64,000 nt of DNA, taken from assembly GCA_002762785.1 (NCBI GenBank), contig PCXY01000003.1, positions 3,317 through 67,316 on the forward strand, given 5' to 3'. The notes below the pieces were generated by a model. It searched no databases and had not been told where the DNA came from. It worked only from the letters and a program-made list of their open reading frames with translations. Within the stretch, counting starts at the first letter, position 1, and each line of letters opens with the position of its first letter. The translations under genes and the position numbers were made by a program. Positions 38,981 to 54,860 of this stretch are shown one piece after another. The stretch comes from Candidatus Woesearchaeota archaeon CG10_big_fil_rev_8_21_14_0_10_45_16. GTDB taxonomy: Archaea; Nanobdellota; Nanobdellia; Woesearchaeales; GW2011-AR9.

Positions 38981-39276
38981 TTAGGCTGGATTCCTTTCTC
39001 TATTCAAAAAAGTAGCGGCCGAAAATCATTACGGGCTAAAGTTATCCTGAACTTTTCTTTTCCCAAGATCTCTGTTTCTGTCAAATCCTTTTCTGGCCCG
39101 AACGTCCCTCTTCTTTTCTGATTCAACCTGTTTTCTCCCTATATCTTTAGGCACTGCCAAATATGTGTGATAAACGTCTATCAGAAATATCTGCTCTATT
39201 TGCTTAGTCTGTTTGTCTAGTTTATTCGTTGTCACAGACCAAAATACTTATAAACTTCAGCTTCTTTCTTCTGGTC

Positions 39277-40806
39277 ATGCCCCTGGGTGAAAAAAAGGAG
39301 AAAGTAAAGAAACGCAAGCTTGTCCAGAAGAAGCGCTCAAAGAAAGAAAAATATAAGTCCATCCAGGACGCTTCTCTGGAAGAAAATATTCCCACAGATT
39401 CTTTTCCAGAAGGTTTGGATTCTCCGCAAGAGGTCTCGGGCTCTGCTCCTGATGGTCCTGTTCCCCCCCTGGAGGAGTCGCCTCAAGAAGAAAAGATTCC
39501 TGTCGCTGCCAAGCCTTCTAAAAAACCAGAGAGCAAGTCTTCTCTTCGTAAACATAATCAGAAGAAAAAACATCATCGGGAAAACAAAGACAAGACCCGA
39601 CGGCTGATAATCGATCTTCTGAAGAGCCGTACTGAAGGGCTTACTATCTCTGAGGTCATGGACAAGCTCAACCTGGCCCGTCATACCATCTTAGCCAGGC
39701 TTCACGCTCTCGTCGGTGAGGGGAAGGTGGTGGTCCGTCAGGTCAACATGGCTAAGCTCCATTATTGGAAAGCGACTGCACCTCCCGAAGAAATCATCGT
39801 GTCATCGGAGAAAGAACATCCCGAACAGGAAAGGGTTAAAGTGAAACCGCTTCATGAAGAGCACTTCAAGAAAGCTCCTAAAAGTCCCCTCCCTGCTGAG
39901 TCATCTCCTGCTGAACAGCTGATGGACATCGCTTCCATCAAGAAGAAGATCCTAGGTGAGCTGCGACAGGGTACGATCAAGAAGCCAGAGGCCCTTATCA
40001 AAGAAACCCGGGCGCCGTTGGTCCACATCATGGAGCATACCGAGCATCCTTCAAAAAGGAAACCTCAAGAATATCTTCTGACTGGCATCCCTGGGTTTGA
40101 TGAGCTTCTGGGCAATGGTATCCCTCGTGGTTCTGCTATCTTGGTGGCGGGGGGAGCCGGCAGCGGCAAGACTATCTTCAGCCTGCAGACTCTTTATAAT
40201 CATGCTCTCTCTGGTGAGAAATGTCTTTACATGAGCTTTGAAGAGCCGGAAGATCACCTGATCCACCACATGGAGGACTTCGGCTGGGATCCTTTGCCGC
40301 TGATCAAGAAAGGTAACCTTATGGTAAAACGGTTCAACCCCTTTGACATCACTCGTAACGTTGATGCTTTGCTGCTGAAAGCCAAAGGCGAGCTTCTTAT
40401 CGATATTGAGCCTATCCTTTTCCCTGATGGTTTTGTCCCTAAGATCATCGTCATCGATTCTTTGACGGCCATCGCATCTGCTTTCTCCAGCAAAGAGGAT
40501 TCTTACCGTGTTTACATTGAACAATTGTTCCGCTTCTTTGAGAAGATGGGCGCTACCTCTTTCCTTATCACTGAGACAAAGCAGATCCCGACAGTCTTCA
40601 GCACCAGTGGTGTGGAAGAGTTCTTGGCAGACGGGGTGATCGTCTTATACAACCTTGAACGAGCCAATGTCCGGGAAAGCGCCATCGAAGTGTTGAAGAT
40701 GCGTGGTTCTCGTCATGTCAAAAAGATTGTTGCCATGCAGATCTCTGATGATGGCATTGTCGTCTTCCCGGGTCAGGAAGTCTTCGAAGAGATTGGTGGC
40801 GAATAA
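39277..40806 (+). CDS. Lys-rich N-terminal tail + winged-helix domain + KaiC/RecA-like ATPase
   Basis: wHTH 'LTISEVMDKLNLARHTILARLHALVGEGKV'. 'GIPGFDELLGNGIPRGS', Walker A 'GGAGSGKT', Walker B 'IIVIDSL'. ATG 39277 lies ~25 nt after CTTATAAAC (ORF track TTG start 39229). Confidence 0.75.
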   Translation: MPLGEKKEKVKKRKLVQKKRSKKEKYKSIQDASLEENIPTDSFPEGLDSPQEVSGSAPDGPVPPLEESPQEEKIPVAAKPSKKPESKSSLRKHNQKKKHHRENKDKTRRLIIDLLKSRTEGLTISEVMDKLNLARHTILARLHALVGEGKVVVRQVNMAKLHYWKATAPPEEIIVSSEKEHPEQERVKVKPLHEEHFKKAPKSPLPAESSPAEQLMDIASIKKKILGELRQGTIKKPEALIKETRAPLVHIMEHTEHPSKRKPQEYLLTGIPGFDELLGNGIPRGSAILVAGGAGSGKTIFSLQTLYNHALSGEKCLYMSFEEPEDHLIHHMEDFGWDPLPLIKKGNLMVKRFNPFDITRNVDALLLKAKGELLIDIEPILFPDGFVPKIIVIDSLTAIASAFSSKEDSYRVYIEQLFRFFEKMGATSFLITETKQIPTVFSTSGVEEFLADGVIVLYNLERANVRESAIEVLKMRGSRHVKKIVAMQISDDGIVVFPGQEVFEEIGGE

Positions 40807-40925: not shown

Positions 40926-41027
40926 CAAGGTGCGCCTTCCCCAAAATGCGAGTATTGGTAATTAATCTATCTTTCTTTTATTAATATCTAATAATTGGGA
41001 CTATTGCTTGGTACTAGAATGGAAACA

Positions 41028-41035
41028 TTTATATA
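41028..41035 (+). promoter_or_regulatory. TATA box TTTATATA for the giant-protein operon
   Basis: 23 nt upstream of ATG 41059. Confidence 0.55.
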
Positions 41036-41058: not shown

Positions 41059-41259
41059 ATGGTGAAAAAAGAGGTAGAGGGTGCTATTTTTAAGTACATC
41101 AAGGACTCTTCTCCTCGGCCTGTCTCTACCAAAGAGATTGCCGAAACCCTAAAGATCGCCTGGCATACTGCCGACCGTTACTGCCTTAAGCTGCAACTTC
41201 AAAAGAAAGTGGGCTGTTTCACCATAGGTAAAGCCACTGCCTGGTATGCTGCCAAATGA
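41059..41259 (+). CDS. small winged-helix DNA-binding protein
   Basis: 'RPVSTKEIAETLKIAWHTADRYCLKLQLQKKV'. The stop overlaps the giant-gene start (ATGA). ORF track TTG start 41008. Confidence 0.6.
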   Translation: MVKKEVEGAIFKYIKDSSPRPVSTKEIAETLKIAWHTADRYCLKLQLQKKVGCFTIGKATAWYAAK

Positions 41260-44200
41260 TGCTCTCAAAAAAAGCCCGGATCAGTACATATCTTCTCTTT
41301 ATCGTGATACTTTTTTCTCTGGTCTTTTTCGTCCTCGCTGACAATCTTACTGGGGATCTTACTAGCGCTAAGGCTGGGGATGCTACCAATGAAACTCTCT
41401 CAAACCTTTCTTTAGATGATTCAGGCAATTTTTCTCAGGCAATTTCTAATGTTTCAATAATCTTTGATGACTCCGGTAGTACTTCGAATCAGTCAGAAGA
41501 CGATATTCAACCGTTAAAGAAGATAGTCAATCTGGAATCAAACCAGAGCAATAACCGCAGCCATCTTCAGCCTTTGATCAAGCTTAAAGACCGCCGCGGC
41601 CAGAAGTTGGGCCGTTTTGTCCTGACTGAAAGGGATAATGGCACCTATGACTTGGAACTGCATTCTGATAAGCCGCTGCTGAAAGCGAAAGCTGTCCGTC
41701 TTGACAAGTTAAAAAGTAAGCTCAAGCAGAATGGAAATGGCAGAAGTAACGGCAGGGGTGATAGAAAAGTAGGAAGCGAAGAAGCTGAAGACAGCAATGC
41801 CTCTGTGCGGATCAGAGGTATCAAAGGCGATCCGACAGAGATCACTGCGATGATCGACAGCCTTGACGACAACGCTGCTGCTATTGATGGTGGTCAGATC
41901 AACACTGAAGTGGTGGCCGTCAGTGAGGTCGAGATAGAAGAAGCAGTCATCCAGTTGCCGAAAGCCGGTTTTGTCAATAAGATCCTGCGCTGCACTGATT
42001 TTGACGAAGAACAGTTCAGCTGCTCTCAGTGGGAAGTTACTGATATCCCTTTCGTTGACCATGGTGATCACATCGAGTTCAACGTGACTCATTTCAGTGC
42101 CTATGCCGGCGGCGAGATCATCGCTATCGATGCAGTCCATCTGGATGAGAATTACTCCATCGTCTCTAATATCTATGCTGATGTTGAGTTGCAAGACGGG
42201 GTATGGAGCGAAGCTATCTATGCTGACGAATATGTAAGGGTTACTTTTGAACAGGATCTTACTGACGGTCGCTACATCGATGTTACGGCTCGGAGTAATG
42301 GGACTGTCGCTTATTTTGAAGTCTACGAGGCAGATACGAATCATCTGGTGGGCCGTTCAGCAGTGATAAACGGACCAGAACACCAGTATCTTCTGGTCGA
42401 TGGTCTTACCGAGCCGACAGATACGTTCGACTTTAAGATCGTAGCTGCTCTCAGCCCGATAGAAGAAGTGAATCAATGCATCAGCTATTGTCCTGTCACT
42501 TGCAATGAAGATTCTTACGATGGTTGTTTTGCTGGCTGTAGCGACGATTGTGATACAGTTACGGCGCATGAGGACCGTACCGTGTTTGTTCAGTTCGATT
42601 TCATCCATGACGATGCCATCACTGCCACCCAGGCTGACGGGATGATTGTCTATGATGAACTTAATGTCCAGACCCCTCGTTACCGCCTTTGGAACGAGTC
42701 AAATAATTTTACTGCTGAGCTGACCAATACTCAAAATGTCGGCGGTGACATCACCTGGAACCTATTACGGGGAAACCATGAACGCGACGAATTCATTCTG
42801 GGAACAGAGGACAAGAACAACGATGTTAACGTCCAGGTCTATAGCAACGGAGCGTGGGGCAACCTGCTGGAAGTAAGCGCCGACGTCCAGAACTCCAACT
42901 CTCGTGGGTTTTCCATCGCTTATGAGGACGTTTCAGGAGACGCTTTGATCGTCTATGAAAACTTGAGCTCGAACGATCAGTTCTTCAAGTATCGTATCTG
43001 GAATGGCACTTCTTATTCTAATGAATTCACCCTTCAAACAGGCCTTCCGTCAAGTAGTGTCCGCTGGATAAATGCTATTCCCCGGTCTGGCAGTGACGAA
43101 ATAATGGTCTTGGTCCATAACAATGCCGGCGACCTGCATGCTCAACTTTGGAACGGCACCAGTTTTGATAATATCCACAACCTTACGATGTCTCTTTCTA
43201 CTACTACCAACACCGAGGAACATTTTAACTTTCAGTGGGAAAGCAAGAGCGATGACGGCATTATCATGTATGGTGTAGGGAGTAATCTAGTCTATCGAGC
43301 TTTTTCCCTCACAGCGCCTTACTGGACTGCCGAAACTAGCATCAGCTTGGGAAACCCTCTCCACGGGTTGCGGATGTGCGCCGATCCAACTTCCGATTAC
43401 ATCGGTATCATCGTCCAGGACGGCGGCAACGATCTCAACGTTAGGATGTGGGACGGCACTCAGATACTTGCTGGTCCGCCAACAGAGGACATACTTGTTG
43501 AGCCTGACGGATCCAATAACGCTAACATCGATTGCGGCTGGTATAACTCCAGCAGTGCTTTATTCGGCTTCATCGACCAGACAGGTGGTGGGAACGGTCT
43601 GTTAAGCATGGATTATTTCACTTTCACCAAAACTAACACTTGGAGTGATCCTTCATTAGGCATTCCTCTCCTTTTGCTTGATAACGCCCCCACAACCGTA
43701 AACTTTGCTTCCGACGACATCGACGGGCTTCGGTTTGCTGAACATCCGACTCTTCCAGAGATTATGGTCACTGCTCAAGACTTGCAGGAACGGGTCGCTC
43801 TGATCCGTTGGAACGGCACCCGTTTTCGGGGTGTCGGCGAATCTCCTGTCGAGACAGCCACTGAAGTGACCAACGGCGGGCAGGAGAGCGCTTTCTTCGA
43901 ATGGTCAAGATACGATCCAGTGCCGAACGTTACTGCTGTCAATCCCAGCGGGCTTAATTTTCCTGCAAATACGCTTATCTCTCTTAATGCTACGGTGCGC
44001 GATAATGTTGGTGTTTCTGTTGTCGTCGCCAACGTCACTTTTCCTAACAGCTCTATCCAATCTTTTACTCTTTTGGATAGTGATGCTGATAACATCTTCA
44101 ACAGCACTCTCATCACCGCTCTAAGTGGTTTTTACACTGTCCGCATCTTTGCTAACGATACCAGCACTCACCGTAATCTTAATAGTTCTGAGTCCGTGAC

Positions 44201-47200
44201 TTTCTCGGTAGGCGATCCTTTCTTCCCCAATGTCACTACTCTCATCCCCAGCAGCGGTTCGGTCTTTAGTCCTCAGGCTTTAGTAGAGATTGCTGCTAAT
44301 GTTACCGATAATGTTTTGGTCGATACAGTACTGGCTAATCTCACTTTTCCTAATGGGACGACTGAAACAATAACTCTGGCCAACGGAACCAATTATATCC
44401 ATAAGTATAATGTTTCCCTCAATGTTGGAAGACGGATCGGCAACTACTCTGTCCGTTTCATCGCTAATGACAGCAGCAACAATATCAATAGCACCGAGAC
44501 AACTTCTTTTACTGTTGTTGACAATGTTCCGCCTAATGTCACCGATCTGATCCCGGCTACCGGAAGCAATTTCAACCTTGGCGCTGTAAGTGTCATCCAG
44601 TTTTCGGCTAATATCAGTGATGATGTTTATATCTCGCAGTTTTATGCCAATTTGACCTATCCGAATGGCTCTCTCGAACAGTTTACTCTTAATAACAATA
44701 CTGGATTTTTCAACAAGTTCAACACTTCTTTTGCGGTCCCTGATAAGATTGGAACTTACACTCTCCGTTTCTTTGCCAACGATACCAGCAATAATAGGAA
44801 TAGCACCCAAATCACGACTTTCACGATCAGTGACGTAACTCCACCTAATGTCACCGATATCAAACCCGTCCAAAGCGGTAGCCATAATATCAGCAGTGTA
44901 GTCGAGATCTCTGTCAACGCTTCTGATGTCATAATTATCGACACGGTCTTAGCGAACATCACCTATCCCAACGGCTCTCAGGAAAAGATCTTTTTGAGCA
45001 ATAGCAGCGGCTACTTCAACAAGTTTAATGTTTCTTACATTGTTCCTAATGTTGTGGGAGTTATCAATATTACCCTTTTCGTCAACGATACCAGTGACAA
45101 TCTTAACTCTACAGAATTTACAAATTTTACGACCAATGATGGAACCAGGCCGAAAACGAGCGTTCTTATCCCTCCTCCGGGCAGCACTTTTGCCCAGAAC
45201 ACGAATGTTTCCATCACGGTCAACGTCACTGACAACATCGCTGTCTCTACGGTAGTTATCAACGTGACCCTGCCTAACGGAACAAGACGGCAAAGTACTC
45301 TTACTGACGCTGACGCTGACGGTCTTTACTACTTTAACTTCACCGAAACTCCTGACACCGGATCTTATAACATCAGGGTCATCGCTAATGACACTAACGA
45401 TAATATTAATAGGACTACTACTAGAATCTTCAATGTTCAGGATAATAATAATCCTATCGTCAACCTGATCTCGCCGGCTGATGAAGCCGTTGTCACCGCT
45501 CTTCCAGTCACTTTCAGATGCAACGCTACAGATAATACAGCTTTAAGCAACATCACTTTATATCTTAATGTCACTGGCGTCTTTGCAGCGAATCAGACAA
45601 TTGCTGTTAACGGCACCAACAACCAGACTAATTTCAGCGTCTCATTGGATGATGGCAATTATATCTGGAACTGCCTGGCCCTGGATGAAGGCGGCAACCC
45701 TTCATTTGGCTCAGCTAACTTCACAGTCAGCATCAACACCTTGCCGCCGGCCGTCACGCCGCTCAGTCCCGCAAATGGCAGCACATTTAACATCACCGAT
45801 ACGGTCAACATCACTGCCTTGGTGACGGATTCGTTTGTCATCAGCAGGGCCGTAGTCAATGTCACTCTTCCCAATGGCAGCATCCAGCAGATCCCCCTTC
45901 AGGATGAGGAAAGCGATTCAACTTACAATGGCACTTTCCTTATCCCTAATAAGATCGGAGCTTATACTATCCGTTATATAGCCAACGATACTAGCAAGAA
46001 CACCAACAGCACCGAGATAGTCTCTTTCACTGCTGTCGATCCCTTCCCGCCAAAGGTCACCGATCTGCGGCCAGTCCAGAACAGCACCTATAACCTCAGC
46101 AACACCATCGAGATCTCAGCCAATGTCTCAGATACTATCTTCGTAAGCCTGGTCTCGGCTAACATCACTTTTCCAAACGGCACCATCCAGGAACTTACAT
46201 TAAGCAACAGCACTGGCTACGGCAACAAGTTCAACTCTTCATTCACCATCCCGCAATTGGTCGGAAACTATTCGGTCTTGTTCATCGCCAACGATACCAG
46301 CAACAATTTTAACTCTACAGAGACCGTCAACTTTACGGTCAATGATGTTCTTGCTCCTAATGTCACTCTCAACACTCCGTTGAACAATACCAATACTTCC
46401 AGCGCCTCTGTAATATTTAACATCACTGTCGCTGACGATGCTCTTACTGCTTTAACCTGTAATCTTTACATCAATTCAACGTTGAATCTCACCAATGCAT
46501 CTGTCGTCGACGGCGTCACTCAGTTTGATATCCCTCTGATCGAAGATGGACCTCACAGCTGGTACGTCAATTGCACAGACGCCTCCGGCAATTTCAACAC
46601 TACTGGTTCTCGTGTCTTTACTGTAGATACACAATTACCGCAGTTCAACAACTTTACTACTTCTCCGAATTCGGAAGCTGATCTCGATCCGGATGTGAAC
46701 GTCACCGTCTTCGCCGGCGTAACTGATAATGTTACTGGGATAAACACCGTGATCTTACAGAGAAAACTAAGCAATGATACGGATGCCAGCTACATCAACG
46801 TCACGATGACCTACAATCCTTTTACAGGATTATATAACGCTTCATTCAATGCCACCCAAAACGGCACCTATAACCTTCGCCTGTTTGCCAATGACACCGT
46901 CGGCAACCGGGAAGTCAGTACTTTAGTCAATATCTCCGTACAATTAGACCGCAACTGGACTCGGAGTCCAGGAACATTCACGGTCGTTACGGCCACGGCC
47001 AGCCAGAACGTGACCGTCGGCAACCTCACGATCAATAACACCGGTGACTTCCCTTTCGTGTTTACGATAGTATCTAACTCGTCCACGACCAGATACAATG
47101 AGACCGAGAATTTCACCCTGGCGGCCGGCCAGGTCAAGTTCCTAGCTATCAATGAGACGGCTCCTCTCGGTGGACTTAAAGTCTTTACCCTGAACATCAG

Positions 47201-50200
47201 TGTCAATGATACAGCAGCCACTCCCTATTCCCAGATATCTACCGGTTCGGTCTTGGTGGCCGGCAACCAGCCGGTGCTTTCGGCTAGTTTCACTACACCT
47301 AATGCGGAGACTAGGCAGGTGACACAAGGCAACACCGGAGTGGCTTTTGTTGCCACATTGACCAATATAGGGATAGGCAATGCTACTAATGTTACTTTTA
47401 CGATAACCTTGCCTAGTGAATGGACGATCACTTTTGGAGACCCTAACCTTACTGTCGGCAACCTTAGTTCAGGTGAAAGCGCAGAGATCAGCCTGGAAGT
47501 GACCATCCCGGCTGACGCAACGATAGGAACATTTACCGTTCTTGCTAATGCTACTGGTAATAATGCGACCAATGGCAGCCTGAATGGGGCAGGTTTGATC
47601 TTCAGTGATTCCGTCGCCGTTACCGTCAATTCTGCTACGACTATCGGTGGCGGTGGCGAACCTACAAGTGGTAGCGGCGGCGGTCCTACGCCTTCCGGAA
47701 CTGCTCCTTCAGGCGGCGGTGGTGGCGGTGGCAGCAGCGGACGCGTCACCAAAGGAACTTTAGGCGGCCAGAGCGAGACCATCGAGACAGTCGATGAGTT
47801 TCTGGTGCCTCGCGGCACGGGCGCATCGACACATTTCACGGTAAGAAACCTCTGGCAGAACGCTTTCATGGAGAACATCGATCTTAAAGTGAGCGGTTTC
47901 CTGGAGAGTTATGTTATCATCTCCCCCGAACTGAACCGCAACCGGGTGGTCGAAGTCAAAGCTGTTTCACATACGCCGCAGTTATTCGAGCTTCCAGGCA
48001 TCGGCTTCCATACCCTCACTGTTGATGAGCTGAAATTTGAAAAAGTAACTGTAACTATCGAGTCTGAACCGCAGGTGCTTGACCTGAAGACCGGCCGTCT
48101 TCGTTATGTTGATCTGGACGGCGATCATTTCGGTGATATCGCTTTGGAACTGGAAGAGATCGTCGGCGAGGAAGCGCAATTAAACATCTATCCGGTCAAG
48201 GATTATGAAAACAGGAGATTGGCCTATGGTGAGAGCTTGAATTATTCACTCGATGTTTATGCCCCGTCATATCTGACCCAGAAAGATTATCAGGTGGATC
48301 TGCAGATCGAGTCGACACTGACGCCGCTGAACGCTACTCAAGCTGGTTTCACCCAGAAGGTGATCACAGAACTTCGCACGCTGCTGTTCAAGATCCAGGG
48401 GGCCGATGCCGAACTAGCGCAGAGTAAGCTGAACCTGGCTCGTGAGATGGTCCAGGAGATGTATGATGCTTCGTTCAATGCCGTCGAGGTCCAGGATCTG
48501 CTGCTTCAGGCTGAGGCAGCTTTTGAAGAGGCTGATTACGATCAGGTGCTGGCTCTAGGTGAGAAGATCACCGAGATCTATGATGATGCTTTCGCCGCTG
48601 CCGAGATCATCACCTTAGTCAAACAACAACAGCAGGATGCTAAAGACAGATGGCTGGGCACGCCGCAGACCGATGAAGCGCTGGGCCTGGCTCAGGTCGC
48701 TTTTGAACGCGGTGATTATGACACAGCTTTGGAACGGGCCAAGAATGCCCAGCTAGTCGCTGTCCTGGAGATAAAAGGAAAAGTGAATGTCATCAAGTTC
48801 GTGATCGATTGGTGGTGGGCTTTGCTTCTGGCAGTTCTGGTCTTGTCTGGGCTGCTGTACTTTGTCTATAAGAGAAGTGTCATCTTTACCATAGAACACC
48901 GTCTCAAGAACTTAACAAAGGAAGAAGATACTCTTCATGAGCTGCTGGAAGAGACACAGAAAAAATATTTCCAGGAAAAATCGCTTTCGGATCAGCAGTA
49001 TCAGCGTTATGTCTCTGAATATCAGAAGCGTCTGGCATCTATTGGCCAGATCCGGGCTAAGCTCCGCAATAAAAGAGTAAAGATACTCAAGACTGAGCAG
49101 GAGCTGCTGAGCATCAAGAAAGAGAAGGATGAGGTTGAAGGACTGTTAAAGAAAAATCAGAAAGATTATTTTATCGATAAGAAATTTGGTTCACAGCGTT
49201 TCAAAGAGAACGAACAGCTTCATAAGACCAGGTTAGCTGAGATCGATAAGGAAGAAGCGATCCTTGAAGAGAAGTTATCTCGCAAGATGGACCAGCGCGG
49301 CTATAAGCTTCTGGAGAGATTCAGACGCCGGAAAAAAGAGGAAGAGAAACTGGCTCTGCAGCCTGAAGCGGCTGTTGAGACTGAACAGGTGGTCGCGCCG
49401 CAGCAGGAACGTGATCTGGGTAAGAAAGATGTGGAAGAAAAGCCAGTCCAGAAGAAGAAAAAGAAGAGACGGTTCTGGCATAAGAAACGGCGGAAAGAAG
49501 AGGAAGTATCGGAAGAGAAAGAACCAGGAGAGAAAGAACCTAAAACTGACAAACAGGATACAGCTGAAGAGACAGCGGAAACAGCCGAACCAGGAAAAGA
49601 AGTTGAGCCTGAAGAGAAAAGTGGTGATGCTGAAGAAAACAAGTCTCTCGAGGAAAAGGATGCATCTCAAAAACACTCCTCTCAAAAACACTCCTCGCAG
49701 AAGCAATCTCCAAAAAATAAAGAAGATTCTAAGAATGAACCTGAGAAAGAGCATACAGAAAAAAAGCCTAACGAAAAATTATCTAAGTCTAAATGGTCGG
49801 GTGGTAGGCATAAATCGGATCATAAAAGCCAGAAGCATGGAAAATCACCAAATATCCTTCCCCTGCTGATCTCGCCGCAGCCTGAAAGCTCCCGGCCTGA
49901 AGAGACAAGGAGAAAAGCCAAGTATGTCGTCCCTATCGACCAGCCCGCTGGCCATAAACCTCACGAACACCATCCAGCGAAGGCTTCTCGTCGGGCCGTC
50001 GATACCACTATCCTGATGAATATGTTCGATCAGCCTTCCGGCAGGTCGTCCTCTGCTCAGTCATCCTCTTCAAAAGATATCCGCAGCCAGTTTGCAGCTT
50101 TTGAACGCGGCGAGATCTCGCTGTCTCGTAGATTCCGTAAAGATGTTGATCTAAAAAGTACCAAAGATGTCCCTTCACCGTTGAGAGGATCAACTGCGAG

Positions 50201-50339
50201 AAAGTCGTCATCAGCAGAAACTGGATATAGGCCGGGGTCAAGATCGAGACGTATCACCAATACTCCTAAAGATGTATCATCTGTTGAGAGGCTTAGTGAA
50301 AAAGAGTTACGGAAACGCTTTCCGGGGGCATTCAAATGA
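41256..50339 (+). CDS. 3027-aa type-I membrane surface protein with a charged cytoplasmic tail
   Basis: In order: signal/anchor 'STYLLFIVILFSLVFFVLA', WNGT propeller-like repeats, ten ~101-aa Ig-like repeats, two CARDB-like modules, a Gly-rich linker, a helical stalk, TM 'WWWALLLAVLVLSGLLYFVY' (48810-48869), and a ~490-aa K/E-rich tail. Confidence 0.9.
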   Translation: MMLSKKARISTYLLFIVILFSLVFFVLADNLTGDLTSAKAGDATNETLSNLSLDDSGNFSQAISNVSIIFDDSGSTSNQSEDDIQPLKKIVNLESNQSNNRSHLQPLIKLKDRRGQKLGRFVLTERDNGTYDLELHSDKPLLKAKAVRLDKLKSKLKQNGNGRSNGRGDRKVGSEEAEDSNASVRIRGIKGDPTEITAMIDSLDDNAAAIDGGQINTEVVAVSEVEIEEAVIQLPKAGFVNKILRCTDFDEEQFSCSQWEVTDIPFVDHGDHIEFNVTHFSAYAGGEIIAIDAVHLDENYSIVSNIYADVELQDGVWSEAIYADEYVRVTFEQDLTDGRYIDVTARSNGTVAYFEVYEADTNHLVGRSAVINGPEHQYLLVDGLTEPTDTFDFKIVAALSPIEEVNQCISYCPVTCNEDSYDGCFAGCSDDCDTVTAHEDRTVFVQFDFIHDDAITATQADGMIVYDELNVQTPRYRLWNESNNFTAELTNTQNVGGDITWNLLRGNHERDEFILGTEDKNNDVNVQVYSNGAWGNLLEVSADVQNSNSRGFSIAYEDVSGDALIVYENLSSNDQFFKYRIWNGTSYSNEFTLQTGLPSSSVRWINAIPRSGSDEIMVLVHNNAGDLHAQLWNGTSFDNIHNLTMSLSTTTNTEEHFNFQWESKSDDGIIMYGVGSNLVYRAFSLTAPYWTAETSISLGNPLHGLRMCADPTSDYIGIIVQDGGNDLNVRMWDGTQILAGPPTEDILVEPDGSNNANIDCGWYNSSSALFGFIDQTGGGNGLLSMDYFTFTKTNTWSDPSLGIPLLLLDNAPTTVNFASDDIDGLRFAEHPTLPEIMVTAQDLQERVALIRWNGTRFRGVGESPVETATEVTNGGQESAFFEWSRYDPVPNVTAVNPSGLNFPANTLISLNATVRDNVGVSVVVANVTFPNSSIQSFTLLDSDADNIFNSTLITALSGFYTVRIFANDTSTHRNLNSSESVTFSVGDPFFPNVTTLIPSSGSVFSPQALVEIAANVTDNVLVDTVLANLTFPNGTTETITLANGTNYIHKYNVSLNVGRRIGNYSVRFIANDSSNNINSTETTSFTVVDNVPPNVTDLIPATGSNFNLGAVSVIQFSANISDDVYISQFYANLTYPNGSLEQFTLNNNTGFFNKFNTSFAVPDKIGTYTLRFFANDTSNNRNSTQITTFTISDVTPPNVTDIKPVQSGSHNISSVVEISVNASDVIIIDTVLANITYPNGSQEKIFLSNSSGYFNKFNVSYIVPNVVGVINITLFVNDTSDNLNSTEFTNFTTNDGTRPKTSVLIPPPGSTFAQNTNVSITVNVTDNIAVSTVVINVTLPNGTRRQSTLTDADADGLYYFNFTETPDTGSYNIRVIANDTNDNINRTTTRIFNVQDNNNPIVNLISPADEAVVTALPVTFRCNATDNTALSNITLYLNVTGVFAANQTIAVNGTNNQTNFSVSLDDGNYIWNCLALDEGGNPSFGSANFTVSINTLPPAVTPLSPANGSTFNITDTVNITALVTDSFVISRAVVNVTLPNGSIQQIPLQDEESDSTYNGTFLIPNKIGAYTIRYIANDTSKNTNSTEIVSFTAVDPFPPKVTDLRPVQNSTYNLSNTIEISANVSDTIFVSLVSANITFPNGTIQELTLSNSTGYGNKFNSSFTIPQLVGNYSVLFIANDTSNNFNSTETVNFTVNDVLAPNVTLNTPLNNTNTSSASVIFNITVADDALTALTCNLYINSTLNLTNASVVDGVTQFDIPLIEDGPHSWYVNCTDASGNFNTTGSRVFTVDTQLPQFNNFTTSPNSEADLDPDVNVTVFAGVTDNVTGINTVILQRKLSNDTDASYINVTMTYNPFTGLYNASFNATQNGTYNLRLFANDTVGNREVSTLVNISVQLDRNWTRSPGTFTVVTATASQNVTVGNLTINNTGDFPFVFTIVSNSSTTRYNETENFTLAAGQVKFLAINETAPLGGLKVFTLNISVNDTAATPYSQISTGSVLVAGNQPVLSASFTTPNAETRQVTQGNTGVAFVATLTNIGIGNATNVTFTITLPSEWTITFGDPNLTVGNLSSGESAEISLEVTIPADATIGTFTVLANATGNNATNGSLNGAGLIFSDSVAVTVNSATTIGGGGEPTSGSGGGPTPSGTAPSGGGGGGGSSGRVTKGTLGGQSETIETVDEFLVPRGTGASTHFTVRNLWQNAFMENIDLKVSGFLESYVIISPELNRNRVVEVKAVSHTPQLFELPGIGFHTLTVDELKFEKVTVTIESEPQVLDLKTGRLRYVDLDGDHFGDIALELEEIVGEEAQLNIYPVKDYENRRLAYGESLNYSLDVYAPSYLTQKDYQVDLQIESTLTPLNATQAGFTQKVITELRTLLFKIQGADAELAQSKLNLAREMVQEMYDASFNAVEVQDLLLQAEAAFEEADYDQVLALGEKITEIYDDAFAAAEIITLVKQQQQDAKDRWLGTPQTDEALGLAQVAFERGDYDTALERAKNAQLVAVLEIKGKVNVIKFVIDWWWALLLAVLVLSGLLYFVYKRSVIFTIEHRLKNLTKEEDTLHELLEETQKKYFQEKSLSDQQYQRYVSEYQKRLASIGQIRAKLRNKRVKILKTEQELLSIKKEKDEVEGLLKKNQKDYFIDKKFGSQRFKENEQLHKTRLAEIDKEEAILEEKLSRKMDQRGYKLLERFRRRKKEEEKLALQPEAAVETEQVVAPQQERDLGKKDVEEKPVQKKKKKRRFWHKKRRKEEEVSEEKEPGEKEPKTDKQDTAEETAETAEPGKEVEPEEKSGDAEENKSLEEKDASQKHSSQKHSSQKQSPKNKEDSKNEPEKEHTEKKPNEKLSKSKWSGGRHKSDHKSQKHGKSPNILPLLISPQPESSRPEETRRKAKYVVPIDQPAGHKPHEHHPAKASRRAVDTTILMNMFDQPSGRSSSAQSSSSKDIRSQFAAFERGEISLSRRFRKDVDLKSTKDVPSPLRGSTARKSSSAETGYRPGSRSRRITNTPKDVSSVERLSEKELRKRFPGAFK
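43917..46949 (+). repeat. ten tandem ~101-aa (about 303-nt) diverged Ig-like repeat units inside the giant CDS
   Basis: Recurrent pattern 'P(P)NVT.L.P..GS.F.......I.ANV.D...V..V.ANLT.PNG......L.N......F..SF.VP...G.Y..R..ANDTSNN.NST....FTV.D'. Units 6 and 9 are a Cys-containing variant. Confidence 0.85.
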
Positions 50340-51247
50340 AACCAGTTGTAAAGACTTATCTCCTGGCTGGATCATTGTTGTTTATCGCTTTGACTCTCGG
50401 TTCTCTGGTTGACAATGATAGTTCTATCACCGGCTTTTTTGTTTTTGAAGATCTGGCGCCGTCTGGGTTCGAATTCATTCCGCCAGACGATGTCTCTGCC
50501 GCTGCCGCTTCCCGGTCGATGGAACTGGCTGAAGGAGTTATGGAAGAGATGGTCCAGGAGAACATGACCATGGTCTTGTCAGCAGATGTCATGGAAGAAG
50601 CCCATGCTGCTTACGATTCTGGAGATTACATGGAATCTATCCGTCTTGCGCAATTCATCGATTACATCCATAAGCAAAAAATTGTCTTCCTCGATAAATA
50701 TTCTCTTCTGCAGACAGATATTGCCGCCGCTTCTTCAACTGGGGTTGACACCAGCATGGCAGAACTCCGGCAGGGAGAAGCTATGGCTTCTTTTACCGAC
50801 GATCAGCTGCTGGAAGCTGATGAGCTTATCTCCCAGTCCCGTCAAGAATTGGAGATGGCTATGGCTGAAAATAAAAGGCGTCAGCGTATCTCTTATCTTG
50901 GCAAGAATTTCCTTCTGAAATATTGGTGGGAACTATTATTGATGATCGTGGCTCTTATCATCGCTGGAGTTATTTTTGGCAAGAAGTGGATCGTCCATCG
51001 CCGTCGTCAGAAACTGCGGACCCTGAAGCTGGAGCAGGCCGAAGCTCAGACCTTGCTGAAAGACCTCCAGAAGCAATGTTTTGTCGACAAGAAGATTTCC
51101 GTGCAGAGCTACAAGCTGCGCAAAGCCCATTATGAGGAACGTCTGGCGGCTATCAAGAGCGCCATCCCCGTCCTGGAAGAGGAATTAGCGGGAAAGAAGA
51201 TAGCCAAAGAGAAAAAAATCTTGACGATGTTAGTGGTGAAAAAATGA
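50336..51247 (+). CDS. 303-aa membrane protein paralogous to the stalk-TM-juxtamembrane module of the giant protein
   Basis: ATGA overlap with the giant gene. 'AHAAYDSGDY', TM 'WWELLLMIVALIIAGVIF', then 'LLKDLQKQCFVDKKISVQSYKLRKAHYEERLAAI'. Confidence 0.7.
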   Translation: MKPVVKTYLLAGSLLFIALTLGSLVDNDSSITGFFVFEDLAPSGFEFIPPDDVSAAAASRSMELAEGVMEEMVQENMTMVLSADVMEEAHAAYDSGDYMESIRLAQFIDYIHKQKIVFLDKYSLLQTDIAAASSTGVDTSMAELRQGEAMASFTDDQLLEADELISQSRQELEMAMAENKRRQRISYLGKNFLLKYWWELLLMIVALIIAGVIFGKKWIVHRRRQKLRTLKLEQAEAQTLLKDLQKQCFVDKKISVQSYKLRKAHYEERLAAIKSAIPVLEEELAGKKIAKEKKILTMLVVKK

Positions 51248-51831
51248 TCGGCCATGAACATCTGATAATATTGAAACCTAAAGATTATTTCTGTGTCGGG
51301 GTAGTCTCTGTCTTGTCATCTTTCCTGATGCTCATAGGAAGTCTTTTCACATCTCCTTCCGTCAGCCTGATATTATCCTTGGCTTTGCTGATCATCGGCA
51401 TGAACCTTAGTGTCTATCTGATAAAGAAAGCTGGGGTCGCTGTCATCTTCTCTTTGCTTACCGGCATCTTCACTTTTTTTCTCAACGATATCGGCGTCCT
51501 GGGCTGGCAGAAGATCATCACTTTTCTGGTCTCCGGCCTGCTCTTTGAACTGATCTTTTTACTGCTGAAGATACGTGTCCATGACGTGCCTTTAGAGTTG
51601 ATCATCGGCTCTTCCCTCTCTGCTGTGACGGTAGTGTTGGTTTCGGCTTTCTTGTTATCAAGCTCCCTGGCCAGATCGTTTCCTTTGGAATTGTTGAACC
51701 TATTGCTTCTGGCTTTTGTGGTCGGTCTTTTTTCTTCAGTATTGTTCTTCTTGTTCTGGCAGGCGGTTGAGCAGAGTAAGCTGATCCTGAAGCTGGAATC
51801 GTATCTGATGAGCCTTAACCGCTGGATCTGA
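51244..51831 (+). CDS. polytopic membrane protein (5-6 TM)
   Basis: ATGA overlap with the upstream gene. Hydrophobic throughout. Confidence 0.6.
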   Translation: MIGHEHLIILKPKDYFCVGVVSVLSSFLMLIGSLFTSPSVSLILSLALLIIGMNLSVYLIKKAGVAVIFSLLTGIFTFFLNDIGVLGWQKIITFLVSGLLFELIFLLLKIRVHDVPLELIIGSSLSAVTVVLVSAFLLSSSLARSFPLELLNLLLLAFVVGLFSSVLFFLFWQAVEQSKLILKLESYLMSLNRWI

Positions 51832-51850: not shown

Positions 51851-52108
51851 TCAAAGAAGGAACAACAATGTCGTCGTATCTGATTTCTCGATGCGGATCA
51901 GCCTGAGGAAAGCCAGTTCTTCACAATGTTTTTTCAATGAAGTAGGGTTGGTGCGGATCTTTCTTTCTAATTGGGAGAGGGTGATACCTGGATTCTCCTG
52001 GATGGCAGTATAAATCTCCCGTTGGATCTCAAGTGTCTTTCTCTTCATGGGTATCAATCGTAGATTATCTGTTTCAATCGGCTCCAAAACGGCTTGATCT
52101 CGTAGCAC
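51851..52108 (-). CDS. winged-helix transcriptional regulator
   Basis: 'IYTAIQENPGITLSQLERKIRTNPTSLKKHCEELAFLRLI'. Confidence 0.6.
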   Translation of the reverse strand: MLRDQAVLEPIETDNLRLIPMKRKTLEIQREIYTAIQENPGITLSQLERKIRTNPTSLKKHCEELAFLRLIRIEKSDTTTLLFLL

Positions 52109-52201: not shown

Positions 52202-52780
52202 ATGTCAGGCAAATCTTTATCAGATAGTCATTCATTTCTTGCGTTAGCCAAAAAACGTAAGACTACTTATGAATTTACTCCTGAAAAAGTTAAGGATAGC
52301 TTCATCAATAAGATTCTTGAGGCCGGCCGCTGGGCGCCTAGCTGTTCCAATACCCAGCCGTGGCATTTTGTCGTTATCAGGGATAAAAATGTGATCCAAA
52401 AGCTGATGATGACTGCCAATTATGGTGATTTCCATACTGATCCTCCGGTCTTGCTGGCCCTTGTCTTGCTGAAAGATCGTTGCCCGGGCAAAGGCTTATC
52501 CTGTTTCCGGGGCAAGGATTCCGGTGTCTATGATTCTTATATCAGTGTGGGGATGGCTGCTTTGAACATGACCCTGCAGGCGGCTGAACTTAGCGTTGAT
52601 TCTTGTATCATCACACCAAGTCAAAAAGAAGCTAGGAAGATCCTTAAGGTGAGGACTTCTGATGCCGTGCCGCTGCTGGTAGGTCTTGGCTTCCAGAGTC
52701 CTAAAACTCTGCAGAAAGCCAGGATCCGTCGTCCGTTGTCAGAAATTGTTTCTCAGGAAATGTTTGGAGGCAACAGATGA
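52202..52780 (+). CDS. nitroreductase-family protein
   Basis: 'RKTTYEFTPE' and 'APSCSNTQPWHFVVI'. TATA TTTATATA at 52151-52158 and GGTGA about 10 nt upstream of the ATG. Confidence 0.8.
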   Translation: MSGKSLSDSHSFLALAKKRKTTYEFTPEKVKDSFINKILEAGRWAPSCSNTQPWHFVVIRDKNVIQKLMMTANYGDFHTDPPVLLALVLLKDRCPGKGLSCFRGKDSGVYDSYISVGMAALNMTLQAAELSVDSCIITPSQKEARKILKVRTSDAVPLLVGLGFQSPKTLQKARIRRPLSEIVSQEMFGGNR

Positions 52781-53307
52781 GCAGCGCCGCTTTAAAAAGT
52801 CTGAACAAAGCAGGGAAGGGTGTCTACGTTATCACCTCTGGAGCTTCCAACAGCAAGAATCTCTCTAAAGAAGTCCTGTCTTCAGTGATGGGCAGCCGTT
52901 TTGGCGTCTATGTTACCCTGAACAGATCTTATACGGAGATGGTCAAGCAGCTGCAGACCCAGAAGATCAAGACCGACAAGCTGTTGTTCATCGATGGTGT
53001 CGGTGCGAAGTGTGAAGTTGACAGTCAGAACTGCATCTCTTTGGAAGGCAACAAATCATTGACGGAACTTTCTTTGATCCTGTCAAAAGCCGGCAGCAAC
53101 AGCTCCATCAAGTTCATCATCTTCGATTCTCTTAATTCCTTATTGTTGTACAATAAAGTTGAATCCTGCGAGCGGTTTGTCCATTATCTTATCAACAAGG
53201 TCAAGAACATGGATGTTCTCCTGGCCATCCTGGCTGTTAATGGCGAGAAGGTTAACCATCTGATCTCGGTGGCTTCGCAGCTTTCCGACAAGGTCATCGA
53301 ACTGTAG
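52777..53307 (+). CDS. KaiC/RecA-superfamily-like protein lacking a canonical Walker A
   Basis: 'GVYVITSGASNSKN' where a P-loop is expected. Walker-B-like 'FIIFDSLNSLL'. ATGA overlap with the nitroreductase gene. Confidence 0.4.
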   Translation: MSSAALKSLNKAGKGVYVITSGASNSKNLSKEVLSSVMGSRFGVYVTLNRSYTEMVKQLQTQKIKTDKLLFIDGVGAKCEVDSQNCISLEGNKSLTELSLILSKAGSNSSIKFIIFDSLNSLLLYNKVESCERFVHYLINKVKNMDVLLAILAVNGEKVNHLISVASQLSDKVIEL

Positions 53308-53655
53308 GTGTTAAACATGGTCCAAATGCTTGAGTTTTACATTCATCTGCTGACTTTTCTGATAGTCTTGTTTCCCGGCTGGCTGATCCTAAAGATCATG
53401 CAGAAAGACCGCGGACAGTTTACCAAGATGTTGGTGCTGGTGCTTTTCGGTCTGCTGCCGATGGCGTTGTATCATCTGGTGGAAGCTTTGGTGGCGGTCG
53501 GAGTGATCCCTTTCTTTCAGGAAGGTGCTTTTAGCCGTATCGTCGCTGAACACGTGGTGGTAGTGCTGGCCTTTGCTTCTTTCAGTTACTTCTTGAGCTT
53601 TTATTATAATAGATACATAAAGCCGATCTATCATATCACTTCTCCTAAAAGATGA
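53308..53655 (+). CDS. small 3-TM membrane protein (paralog group with 54182 and 54501)
   Basis: Three hydrophobic helices, 'LYHLVEAL' after TM2. The likely ATG is at 53317. Confidence 0.5.
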   Translation: MLNMVQMLEFYIHLLTFLIVLFPGWLILKIMQKDRGQFTKMLVLVLFGLLPMALYHLVEALVAVGVIPFFQEGAFSRIVAEHVVVVLAFASFSYFLSFYYNRYIKPIYHITSPKR

Positions 53656-54155
53656 AAAAAAGAATTACTGTCAATGATTCCATGCAGAAAAAGTATGTCT
53701 ATTACCTGACAGAACCTGCTGGGAAGAATTTTCACCCTGCTTTCAAGCCGCAACTGACTCCTAAACAGATGCTGGGACTGGGTGTCTTTGGCGGCAAGTA
53801 TCTTAACGATTGCCGGAAGGAGTTTCCTGCCAGCTGGTTTGCCAAAGCTAAATTATGTAGAAAGAAGCATGATCCTTCTCTAAATTATTTCGGCGTTAAC
53901 GCTTCCAAGCCGTTATGGTACTGGATAAAAAAACGTTGGGTCTATAAAGAAGATCCCCGAGGCTGGTTCCAGTGGTACTGTCGTTATTATCAAGGAAGGA
54001 GATGCAAAGATGACTTGCGGCAGATCAGGCGGTGGAAAGCCATGACTCGGCATGTAGCTCAGGTAAAGAAGAACTGTCGCAGAGGAGATACTGGTTGTCG
54101 TCCTCGGCAACGGCAGGCTTTATTGCATTGGGCCTATGACAGTCGGAAGATATAA
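53652..54155 (+). CDS. conserved-looking basic hypothetical protein
   Basis: 'DPRGWFQWYCRYYQGRRCKDDLRQIRRWK' looks like a family signature that I cannot name. ATGA overlap upstream. Confidence 0.5.
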   Translation: MKKRITVNDSMQKKYVYYLTEPAGKNFHPAFKPQLTPKQMLGLGVFGGKYLNDCRKEFPASWFAKAKLCRKKHDPSLNYFGVNASKPLWYWIKKRWVYKEDPRGWFQWYCRYYQGRRCKDDLRQIRRWKAMTRHVAQVKKNCRRGDTGCRPRQRQALLHWAYDSRKI

Positions 54156-54181
54156 ATACAGTAAAATAATCATTTTATCGC

Positions 54182-54496
54182 ATGGAAACGGCAGTGGTAC
54201 TATTGATCGGAACGTTGCTGTTAGGCGGTGTTACTGTGTTCTTGGCTTTCCGTTGCCGCAGCTACAAGCTGGATATAAATAGTAAGTTCCTTGATTACCG
54301 TTTCATGGCTTTGCTGGTGGTGGCTTTGGCTTTCTCTCTTCATACTCTCGGCGATGCCCTGATGCCGTCCATGGGAGAAGAGGTGGAGATGCTGTTGGAA
54401 TCCATCGCTCACGTTATCATGGCGGTAAGCCTGTTCATCTTTTTACTAGGTTCGCGATACTTGTTGCGCTCAGCAAAAGAACATTCGTTTAAATAA
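54182..54496 (+). CDS. small 3-TM membrane protein
   Basis: 'SLHTLGDAL' after TM2. Confidence 0.5.
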   Translation: METAVVLLIGTLLLGGVTVFLAFRCRSYKLDINSKFLDYRFMALLVVALAFSLHTLGDALMPSMGEEVEMLLESIAHVIMAVSLFIFLLGSRYLLRSAKEHSFK

Positions 54497-54500
54497 AAAA

Positions 54501-54860
54501 ATGGAAGAAACAATCTTATTGATAGCGCAGGTCAGCGCATCCCTGACTACCATCCTCGGTGCGGTAGCTCTCTTCTATGTTATCCAGGCCGTCCGCAGTC
54601 TCCTGCCGGGTGAACTACGAAAGATCATGATGCTCTCGGCGGTGGCTTTCGGAGTGGCTTTGCTGGGCCTTAGCAGCATGACCGTGTTTCATCTCCTGGA
54701 AGAAAGTTCTCACGAGATCGCTGAGGTCATGGAATTTTTCTGGTACTTGCTGATGTTCCTGGCCCTGTTAATATTCTGTTATGAATCCTGGCAGATAGCT
54801 TCTTTCGGCAAGAGGATCACCGAGCCTTTGGAGAAGTTTGGGAAGAAAAAGAGAAGCTGA
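54501..54860 (+). CDS. small 3-TM membrane protein
   Basis: 'VFHLLEES' after TM2; basic C-terminal tail. Confidence 0.5.
   Translation: MEETILLIAQVSASLTTILGAVALFYVIQAVRSLLPGELRKIMMLSAVAFGVALLGLSSMTVFHLLEESSHEIAEVMEFFWYLLMFLALLIFCYESWQIASFGKRITEPLEKFGKKKRS

Follow-up and report, generated by a model that had tools for sequence, protein, structure and literature searches.

The giant SPEARE proteins of Nanohaloarchaeota were reportedly described by Hamm and co-workers in 2019, and Makarova, Galperin and Koonin are said to have proposed, on computational grounds and in mBio in 2017, that KaiC-like ATPases act as signalling hubs in archaea. Further described systems with which the present locus can be compared are SlaA/SlaB surface layers (S-layers), the PapI/FaeA regulators of bacterial fimbrial operons and the S components of energy-coupling factor (ECF) transporters. 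Here we analyzed a 64,000-bp stretch of DNA (hereafter the window) from Candidatus Woesearchaeota archaeon CG10_big_fil_rev_8_21_14_0_10_45_16, corresponding to positions 3317-67316 of contig C2 (PCXY01000003.1) in a 98%-complete genome of 1.18 Mb and six contigs. It contains four overlapping genes for a small winged helix-turn-helix (wHTH) protein, a predicted giant surface glycoprotein, a short paralog of the membrane anchor of this glycoprotein and a polytopic membrane protein. As read from the sequence, the four genes are one conserved transcription unit, and this operon probably encodes a regulated cell-attachment apparatus. Together with a neighbouring gene for a KaiC-like ATPase it would represent, in the reading that we favour with slightly better than even confidence, an accessory module for anchored surface proteins that is linked to KaiC and conserved in Woesearchaeota and related Nanoarchaeia, i.e., a regulated, KaiC-coupled adhesin complex. 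A full-text literature search, the reach of which did not extend to Makarova et al. 2017, retrieved no description of this gene set.

The four genes are located on the forward strand and, according to the open reading frame (ORF) listing and the translations, encode P0001 (66 aa, 41059-41259), P0002 (3027 aa, 41256-50339), P0003 (303 aa, 50336-51247), and P0004 (195 aa, 51244-51831). All three junctions read ATGA in the raw sequence (41256-41259, 50336-50339, and 51244-51247), and Shine-Dalgarno-like motifs are present ahead of the start codons of the 303-aa gene (GGGGG) and the 195-aa gene (GGTGA). A TATA box (TTTATATA, 41028-41035, +) preceded by AAACA was found 31 nt before the ATG at 41059, and this spacing implies a leaderless or near-leaderless archaeal mRNA. 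An earlier note on this DNA had claimed four forward-strand ORFs with ATGA overlaps and a single TATA box, and ORF listing, translations and raw sequence matched this arrangement exactly. From this layout, co-transcription and translational coupling of the four genes are predicted. The unit ends at 51831, because a convergent small gene on the opposite strand begins 20 nt past the last stop codon. This gene (51851-52048, -) encodes a 65-aa HTH_24-type winged-helix protein without a clear paralog in the genome; as it is conserved in no related locus, it was rejected as a part of the system. Neither tRNAs nor Rfam families were detected in the 64-kb window.

The organization of the gene cluster was then compared with that in other genomes. 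ORF comparison of the fetched loci revealed all four genes in the same order in G004, G009, G013, and L024, and three of the four in G007, in which the giant gene is split over two contig ends, and in G008, in which the 195-aa gene is missing; L023 contains the last two genes only. The 4-nt overlap is found at the junction of the giant gene and the P0003 gene in about 10 loci and at the P0003/P0004 junction in about eight. Three metagenome contigs with independent gene calls carry genes for proteins of 65, 2071, 299, and 191 aa with 4-nt overlaps, followed by a KaiC gene. A P0003 homologue was present in 11 of 61 relatives, and in a 251-genome sample of the phylum the anchor family represented by P0003 occurred in 42 genomes (17%), all of which belong to one class. 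In about two dozen of these 42 genomes, covering several families and orders, a gene for a paralog of ~300 aa comes next after a large anchor-bearing ORF (up to 6305 aa) in the same orientation. The records that contain related loci are titled Candidatus Woesearchaeota or Nanoarchaeia. Third-party annotation (TPA) bins of the same GTDB family (L019-L022, L024) carry the title 'uncultured Methanosarcinales archaeon', which is an apparent labelling error.

Compact archaeal genomes often have ATGA overlaps, so that four unrelated neighbours might overlap by mere chance. This explanation is hardly credible, as it is refuted by a gene order and overlaps that recur in different families and orders and by the matching phyletic profiles of the genes. 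The earlier note had named non-conserved neighbours as the result that would speak against a co-transcribed unit and had suggested a search for co-occurrence of the genes in related genomes. The neighbours are kept beside homologous giant genes, and the same order, mostly with the same 4-nt overlaps, recurs in Woesearchaeota, Nanoarchaeia and metagenome contigs. Concerning the extent of the unit, the four genes and their order are real, but four genes are too few, as genes for KaiC and inactive KaiC are also part of the neighbourhood, joined in close relatives by a nitroreductase gene.

The giant protein P0002 starts with a signal peptide (aa 1-28, the hydrophobic N-terminal segment), which is followed by a conserved head with W-N-G-T repeats (aa ~190-890), immunoglobulin (Ig)-like/CARDB repeats saturated with glycosylation sequons (aa ~890-2130), a G/S/P linker (aa ~2135-2175), and a membrane-proximal domain (aa 2180-2380). 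The subsequent anchor module (48396-49355, +) is composed of a stalk (aa 2381-2514), a transmembrane (TM) helix (aa 2515-2537), and a cytoplasmic part (aa 2538-2700). The protein ends with a distal cytoplasmic tail (49356-50339, +; aa 2701-3027), which by its composition is a K/R/E/S/P-rich sequence of low complexity. Besides the N-terminal hydrophobic segment there is one C-terminal segment, the TM helix. Before the TM helix 128 N-x-S/T sequons were observed compared to 45 expected ones, and in the tail after it two compared to 1.5, a bias consistent with a cytoplasmic C-terminus and a large ectodomain that is glycosylated. In a Pfam search Big_7 and NPCBM_assoc matched above their cut-offs, and MG2 and Big_13 below theirs; a relative of the giant was not found among the PDB sequences. 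Homologues of the head (aa 190-890) comprise 47 giant proteins of Woese- and Pacearchaeota, nearly all of them named 'hypothetical' and two bearing generic names, e.g., 'DUF11 domain-containing'.

In orthologous loci the gene 2 product can be as short as 268 aa or exceed 6000 aa in length, and the anchor module stays constant. The stalk and the juxtamembrane region of ~150 residues are kept in every large orthologue, whereas for the distal tail (residues 2700-3027) BLAST found a match in no orthologue. The charged tail of ~490 aa that had been read from this sequence before is indeed present as a cytoplasmic tail, but conservation is confined to aa ~2538-2700 and the rest is low-complexity sequence without orthologue match. 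Its length had also been used as the basis for a signalling role, an argument that does not hold for a tail consisting mostly of unconserved low-complexity sequence. The idea that the giant is something other than a passive or housekeeping S-layer fared better, as no more than 42 of the 251 sampled genomes contain the anchor family. With this 17% share, the pair of giant and short paralog is not a housekeeping wall layer. S-layer families of Pfam or NCBIfam matched none of the operon proteins, and a lineage-wide presence was found neither in the sample (42/251) nor among the relatives (11/61).

P0003 possesses a signal peptide, an all-helical ectodomain with two helix-helix-long-helix repeats, a TM helix, and one cytoplasmic helix-loop-helix motif (hairpin). 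Its designation as a mini-anchor paralog of the giant was borne out by BLASTP, which aligned the 303-aa protein to residues 2385-2622 of the giant with an E-value of 4e-15 and, in a second alignment, to residues 2606-2686 with an E-value of 6e-10. The module common to both proteins consists of an extracellular helical stalk, a TM helix and the cytoplasmic hairpin, which occurs twice in the giant and once in P0003. Invariant columns in an alignment of eight homologues include K242, Q245, Y259, Y266, and P278 of P0003. The AlphaFold2 model of P0003 had a mean predicted local distance difference test score (pLDDT) of 82.8, with values above 90 for residues 50-280, and no significant fold match in the PDB. 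Sperm microtubule inner proteins, BAR domains and TM helices of ATP-binding cassette (ABC) proteins appeared as candidates (E > 0.07, TM-score < 0.25). As these are merely generic long-helix proteins, the fold was left unassigned. An NCBIfam match to xenorhabdolysin subunit A (20.6 bits, cut-off 125) was dismissed as a consequence of helical and TM composition. No Pfam family covers P0003 or the anchor module, and even at E ≤ 10 the isolated cytoplasmic motif and the stalk gave nothing credible; a SHOCT-type match, which the pattern of the motif brings to mind, was looked for in the Pfam scan and was not found.

A profile search with the anchor family yielded 2092 clusters at 50% identity (E ≤ 1e-3), 698 of them with E-values below 1e-30. 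The members are either proteins of ~300 aa or the C-termini of proteins of 500-3500 aa, and all sampled ones are unannotated. One member of 398 aa (P0162, OGF19904.1) is deposited under a bin of Candidatus Falkowbacteria, a bacterium of the candidate phyla radiation (CPR); this is either a mis-binned archaeal contig or a case of transfer between ultra-small bacteria and archaea. The 303-aa protein most likely pairs with the giant in a hetero-oligomeric stalk and anchor.

The fourth gene product, P0004, is a six-helix membrane protein in which the intramembrane residue Glu102 and Trp172 are invariant. It matched the YkoE-like family PF09819 with 28.2 bits (cut-off 25.2), and with 29.7 bits in a six-frame search of the genome. 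At E ≤ 0.01 this match was obtained for only three of 15 P0004 orthologues. The AlphaFold2 model (pLDDT 90.1) has the fold of an S component, with 5EDL as the best Foldseek hit (TM-score 0.67/0.66, probability 1.00) and RibU, ThiT and PanT also listed; a search of the 195-aa family against the PDB sequences gave no match. P0004 was detected in 15 of the 251 genomes, 13 of which are anchor-positive, and its gene immediately follows gene 3 in every locus that has the two. We regard P0004 as a putative third, optional membrane subunit. In G002 (L037:9132-10423) an S-component-like gene has no anchor pair beside it, and its ATGA overlap is with a gene for a 241-aa protein with three TM helices (MVDVLVTFWNRFIDLL...), a close homologue of which is encoded at L021:4251-4955, ~5 kb from a cassette.

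An S-component fold raises the question of whether the locus serves nutrition. P0004 might be a solitary transporter for a vitamin or precursor, for which the adhesin brings the cell to the source, so that both would form a nutrient-scavenging unit. The fold, the PF09819 match and the invariant intramembrane Glu agree with this idea, as do the tight coupling to gene 3 in many loci and the small genome of 1.18 Mb. However, a search for EcfT/CbiQ (PF02361) in the 98%-complete genome gave no hit, with a control search being positive in 11 of 14 reference genomes, and the orthologues as a group hardly reach the Pfam model. Moreover, P0004 is missing from about two thirds of the anchor-pair genomes (present in 13/42), and homologues also occur alone in other contexts, namely in G002 and G031. 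A function in contact-coupled uptake is therefore very improbable.

The first gene product, P0001, is a minimal winged helix. It has weak Pfam wHTH matches to TBPIP (E-value 0.005) and to FaeA/PapI (PF04703), the latter with 16.4 bits being below the cut-off of 20.7 bits. Its orthologues are 56-75% identical and encoded directly upstream of the giant gene, and in every orthologous locus the operon opens with the gene for this small single-wHTH protein, which agrees with the FaeA/PapI pattern of a regulator encoded together with an adhesin operon. The family comprises at least 246 clusters, some of which were named FaeA/PapI or 'transcriptional regulator' in their source; among the 120 family members listed, about 10 have a precomputed PF04703 match. 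Profile comparison with hhalign aligned P0001 end to end with the wHTH domain of the neighbouring KaiC protein (probability 78%, E-value 1.8e-5). BLASTP of the small wHTH protein against the KaiC protein gave no match, so it is the profile comparison alone that reveals this kinship. P0001 is also related to the wHTH of Csa3-type regulators, and a search of its family against the PDB sequences returned noise only. An assignment of the operon to anti-phage defence systems (PADLOC) was rejected: the sole resemblance, to the wHTH of Csa3/CARF regulators, was in the wHTH parts, and the membrane proteins remained unmatched. Close P0001 orthologues (E < 1e-30) were found in eight genomes of the 251-genome sample, and seven of these eight are anchor-positive.

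The upstream regions of seven P0001 orthologues cannot be aligned except for two common elements, the transcription factor B recognition element (BRE) and TATA box (AACATTTATA) and a motif with the core AAA-N-TGC-R-A-R-TA. The promoter is kept in all seven orthologous loci that carry the small wHTH gene, and TTTATA is invariant in the alignment of these promoters. In the window, the motif reads AAATGCGAGTAT (40944-40955, +), at a distance of about 75-85 bp from the TATA box downstream of it, and this sequence occurs only once. The core is present in 7/7 orthologous promoters, about 60-85 bp 5′ of the TATA box. The fetched loci, 467 kb in total, contain the strict core solely upstream of small wHTH genes; it is absent from those without such a gene. 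The 9-mer core has six occurrences in the genome compared to 21 expected ones. This pattern is as expected of an operator for a co-encoded wHTH protein, making AAATGCGAGTAT a candidate operator or activating site. Most probably, the 66-aa protein binds this element and thereby regulates the operon that encodes it.

Upstream of the operon and outside the coordinates covered by the earlier note, a gene (39277-40806, +) encodes a wHTH-KaiC-like ATPase of ~509 aa (PF06745, 182.9 bits). The protein is composed of a basic disordered N-terminus, a wHTH domain (~105-170, with HTH_20/HTH_24 matches at 105-151), and a KaiC/RecA-type ATPase domain whose Walker A motif (GGAGSGKT) and FEE motif are visible in the translation. 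Its gene has a TATA-like box of its own (TTATAAA, 39248-39254) before the ATG at 39277. KaiC orthologues with 50-75% identity adjoin the cassette in at least 11 other loci, either upstream, downstream or divergent, and many of them consist of nothing but a KaiC domain of 260-300 aa, without the wHTH. A DNA-binding output domain is available in both arrangements, as a wHTH fused to the N-terminus of KaiC in the window and as a separate gene in G007. In the latter genome (L039:2058-6156; G007:C28, -), genes for a 75-aa KaiC-type wHTH protein, an 883-aa coiled-coil protein without TM helix, and a KaiC orthologue form an overlapping three-gene unit, which is divergent from the gene pair for the small wHTH protein and the giant.

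KaiC and the anchor family co-occur to a remarkable extent. Among the 61 relatives, 11 have both, none the anchor only, three KaiC only, and 47 neither (p = 9e-10), and the corresponding numbers for the 251 genomes are 38, four, nine, and 200 (p = 8e-32), the p-values being from Fisher tests, which ignore shared ancestry. In most double-positive genomes KaiC and anchor genes are on one contig within ~10 kb of each other, often adjacent.

Two further genes downstream of the operon are connected with KaiC. A nitroreductase-family gene (52202-52780, +; Pfam) is ATGA-coupled to a gene for a KaiC-like protein of the DUF7504 type (52777-53307, +). The latter has weak matches to DUF7504 and KaiC, both below the curated cut-offs, and no Walker A motif is visible in its translation, which identifies it as a P-loop-less KaiC homologue. 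DUF7504-like genes recur in at least nine cassette loci, and genes for CheY receivers also recur nearby. The pair of nitroreductase and inactive-KaiC genes is likewise located beside KaiC in G035 (L035) and in contigs L041-L043. In the window, this pair is followed by genes for small membrane proteins (the whole stretch spanning 52202-54860, +). A multi-copy version of the module was observed on a 41-kb contig of a relative from another family with a genome of 2.1 Mb (G059:C13:10001-41427; L016, L017), which carries genes for anchor proteins of 1623, 1418, and 1721 aa, two KaiC orthologues, four inactive-KaiC proteins, and two CheY receivers.

The ATPase could have a mechanical function. A cytoplasmic KaiC ring comparable to that of ArlH at the base of the archaellum might sit on the hairpins and spend ATP to insert, cluster, position or remodel the giants, and no signal to DNA would be involved. 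In favour of such an assembly or positioning machine, Walker A and FEE motifs are intact, there is a weak resemblance to ArlH/FlaH, and many orthologues are bare domains without wHTH. The resemblance amounts to 51.3 bits in the ArlH (FlaH) equivalog model NF052589, however, which has a cut-off of 215, and wHTH fusions, stand-alone wHTH proteins, inactive KaiC copies and CheY receivers better fit a regulatory network. We consider this explanation improbable.

According to the reading that we favour, that of a KaiC-coupled adhesin complex, the giant would be exported, heavily N-glycosylated and held in the membrane by its C-terminal stalk-TM-hairpin module. The 303-aa paralog, which is the same module without the giant's ectodomain, would join the giant as a hetero-oligomeric anchor, and the 195-aa S-component-fold protein would be an optional third membrane subunit. 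The four genes would be transcribed as a single leaderless mRNA from the conserved TATA promoter, and the 66-aa winged-helix protein would regulate its own operon via AAATGCGAGTAT, as PapI and FaeA do for fimbrial operons. The neighbouring KaiC-like ATPase, together with the inactive copies, would be tied to the complex in function; it would most likely dock at the cytoplasmic hairpins and in this way link regulation to the condition of the adhesin. What we infer in this picture is that the proteins form a complex, that this complex adheres to a partner cell or to a surface, which protein binds the DNA element, that KaiC docks, and in which direction any signal would run. The earlier note had connected the cell surface with DNA, and the wHTH-KaiC neighbour and its co-occurrence with the anchor lend this idea circumstantial support.

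Several observations weigh against this reading. Neither Pfam nor the PDB sequence search revealed in the giant a domain whose ligand or adhesion specificity is known, and a role in host attachment is deduced from lifestyle, Woesearchaeota being uncultured. Many loci with giant, ~300-aa paralog and KaiC lack the small wHTH protein and the 195-aa protein, which are therefore accessory and not essential to the core function; weaker-scoring P0001-like wHTH genes also occur in genomes without the anchor family. A fusion of KaiC or inactive KaiC to the anchor module was not found in the longer family members scanned, which showed only coiled-coil extensions or MG2, so that the case for docking of KaiC on the hairpins is one of co-occurrence. 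As to the neglect of shared ancestry in the Fisher tests, the patchy distribution over many families makes the KaiC-anchor signal hard to explain by descent alone.

In a simpler explanation, the operon encodes a passive surface adhesin, for which the short paralog and P0004 are helpers in anchoring, and the small wHTH protein and wHTH-KaiC only switch transcription in response to cytoplasmic cues, as a control by phase or condition, with nothing crossing the membrane. It is in line with the conserved promoter and upstream element that accompany a dedicated small wHTH protein, with a KaiC gene that has its own promoter and a position and orientation varying between loci, and with the unconserved distal tail and the failure to find a KaiC-anchor fusion in the scanned proteins. 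It leaves unexplained, however, the conservation of ~150 cytoplasmic residues, the tandem hairpins with K, Q, Y, Y, and P invariant in the eight-homologue alignment, which rank with the best-kept regions of either paralog, and the fact that the occurrence of KaiC follows the anchor module, whichever ectodomain is attached. A plain adhesin operon is for these reasons unlikely, though an explanation to be taken seriously.

A more far-reaching interpretation is that the anchor pair is a previously unrecognised class of archaeal single-pass receptors and part of a KaiC-based transmembrane pathway for contact sensing that is specific to DPANN archaea. Binding of a partner cell by the giant ectodomain would then pass through a hetero-oligomeric stalk and TM helices to the tandem hairpins, which would recruit or release the hexameric KaiC-like ATPase, and this in turn would control wHTH proteins and gene expression. 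CheY receivers and inactive KaiC could be further nodes, and an importer of the S-component type might be physically coupled in some lineages. At present we are doubtful about this receptor function and regard it as rather unlikely.

Elsewhere in the window, a gene at 28707-32540 (+) encodes a 1277-aa MutS protein containing an intein, which is inserted just before or within MutS domain V. The Pfam matches to the intein are Intein_splicing (residues 677-1073) and LAGLIDADG_3 (residues 864-932), the latter representing a homing endonuclease.

The attachment of DPANN archaea to partner cells and their sensing of such cells are largely unknown, and the module provides a recurring set of parts for these processes, composed of a variable giant glycoprotein, an unannotated anchor family of more than 2000 clusters and a KaiC-like ATPase. 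It also provides a candidate regulator with a candidate operator site and offers a testable version of the proposal that KaiC serves as an archaeal signalling hub. In addition, the anchor module could be used as a marker for surface proteins in metagenomes, whatever ectodomain they carry.

A comparison with ECF S components of the YkoE type (5EDL, PF09819) is suggested by the six-helix fold of P0004 and its Pfam match above the cut-off. Unlike these, P0004 is encoded in a genome without an EcfT scaffold, its predicted gene overlaps the gene of an anchor protein and not those of transporters, and its orthologues taken together score only marginally with the Pfam model. Archaeal SlaA/SlaB S-layers, built from a large canopy protein and a smaller helical stalk protein anchored in the membrane, share with the locus the presence of a large glycosylated outer protein encoded beside a smaller helical membrane-anchored protein, both being presumably co-transcribed here. 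They differ in that no match of sequence or fold to them was found, that the giant has its own TM anchor, and that the pair of giant and paralog is restricted to 17% of the sampled genomes. With PapI and FaeA (PF04703), P0001 has in common the form of a single wHTH protein of 65-77 aa and a gene placed together with the adhesin genes that would be its targets; a conserved DNA element also lies upstream here, and some family members are annotated as FaeA/PapI or carry PF04703. In contrast to them, P0001 scores below the cut-off of PF04703, its host is an archaeon with a TATA/BRE promoter, and evidence for a phase switch of the Lrp/Dam type was not seen.

The KaiC signalling hubs are matched by a single-domain KaiC/RecA-type ATPase with intact P-loop in this neighbourhood and by P-loop-less KaiC copies, CheY-like receivers and wHTH outputs that are encoded with membrane proteins. 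The difference is that the constant genomic partner here is an unannotated stalk-TM-hairpin anchor family in the form of a long and a short paralog, the long one carrying a giant glycosylated ectodomain. The SPEARE and other DPANN giant proteins, finally, resemble P0002 in being very large, membrane-anchored and repeat-rich surface proteins of a small-genome DPANN archaeon with a presumed role in cell-cell contact. Unlike SPEARE proteins, P0002 has no protease, nuclease or HerA/FtsK-type ATPase domain, with Pfam showing only Ig-like/CARDB-type domains, and it is distinguished by an anchor module in common with a short paralog and by its linkage to KaiC.

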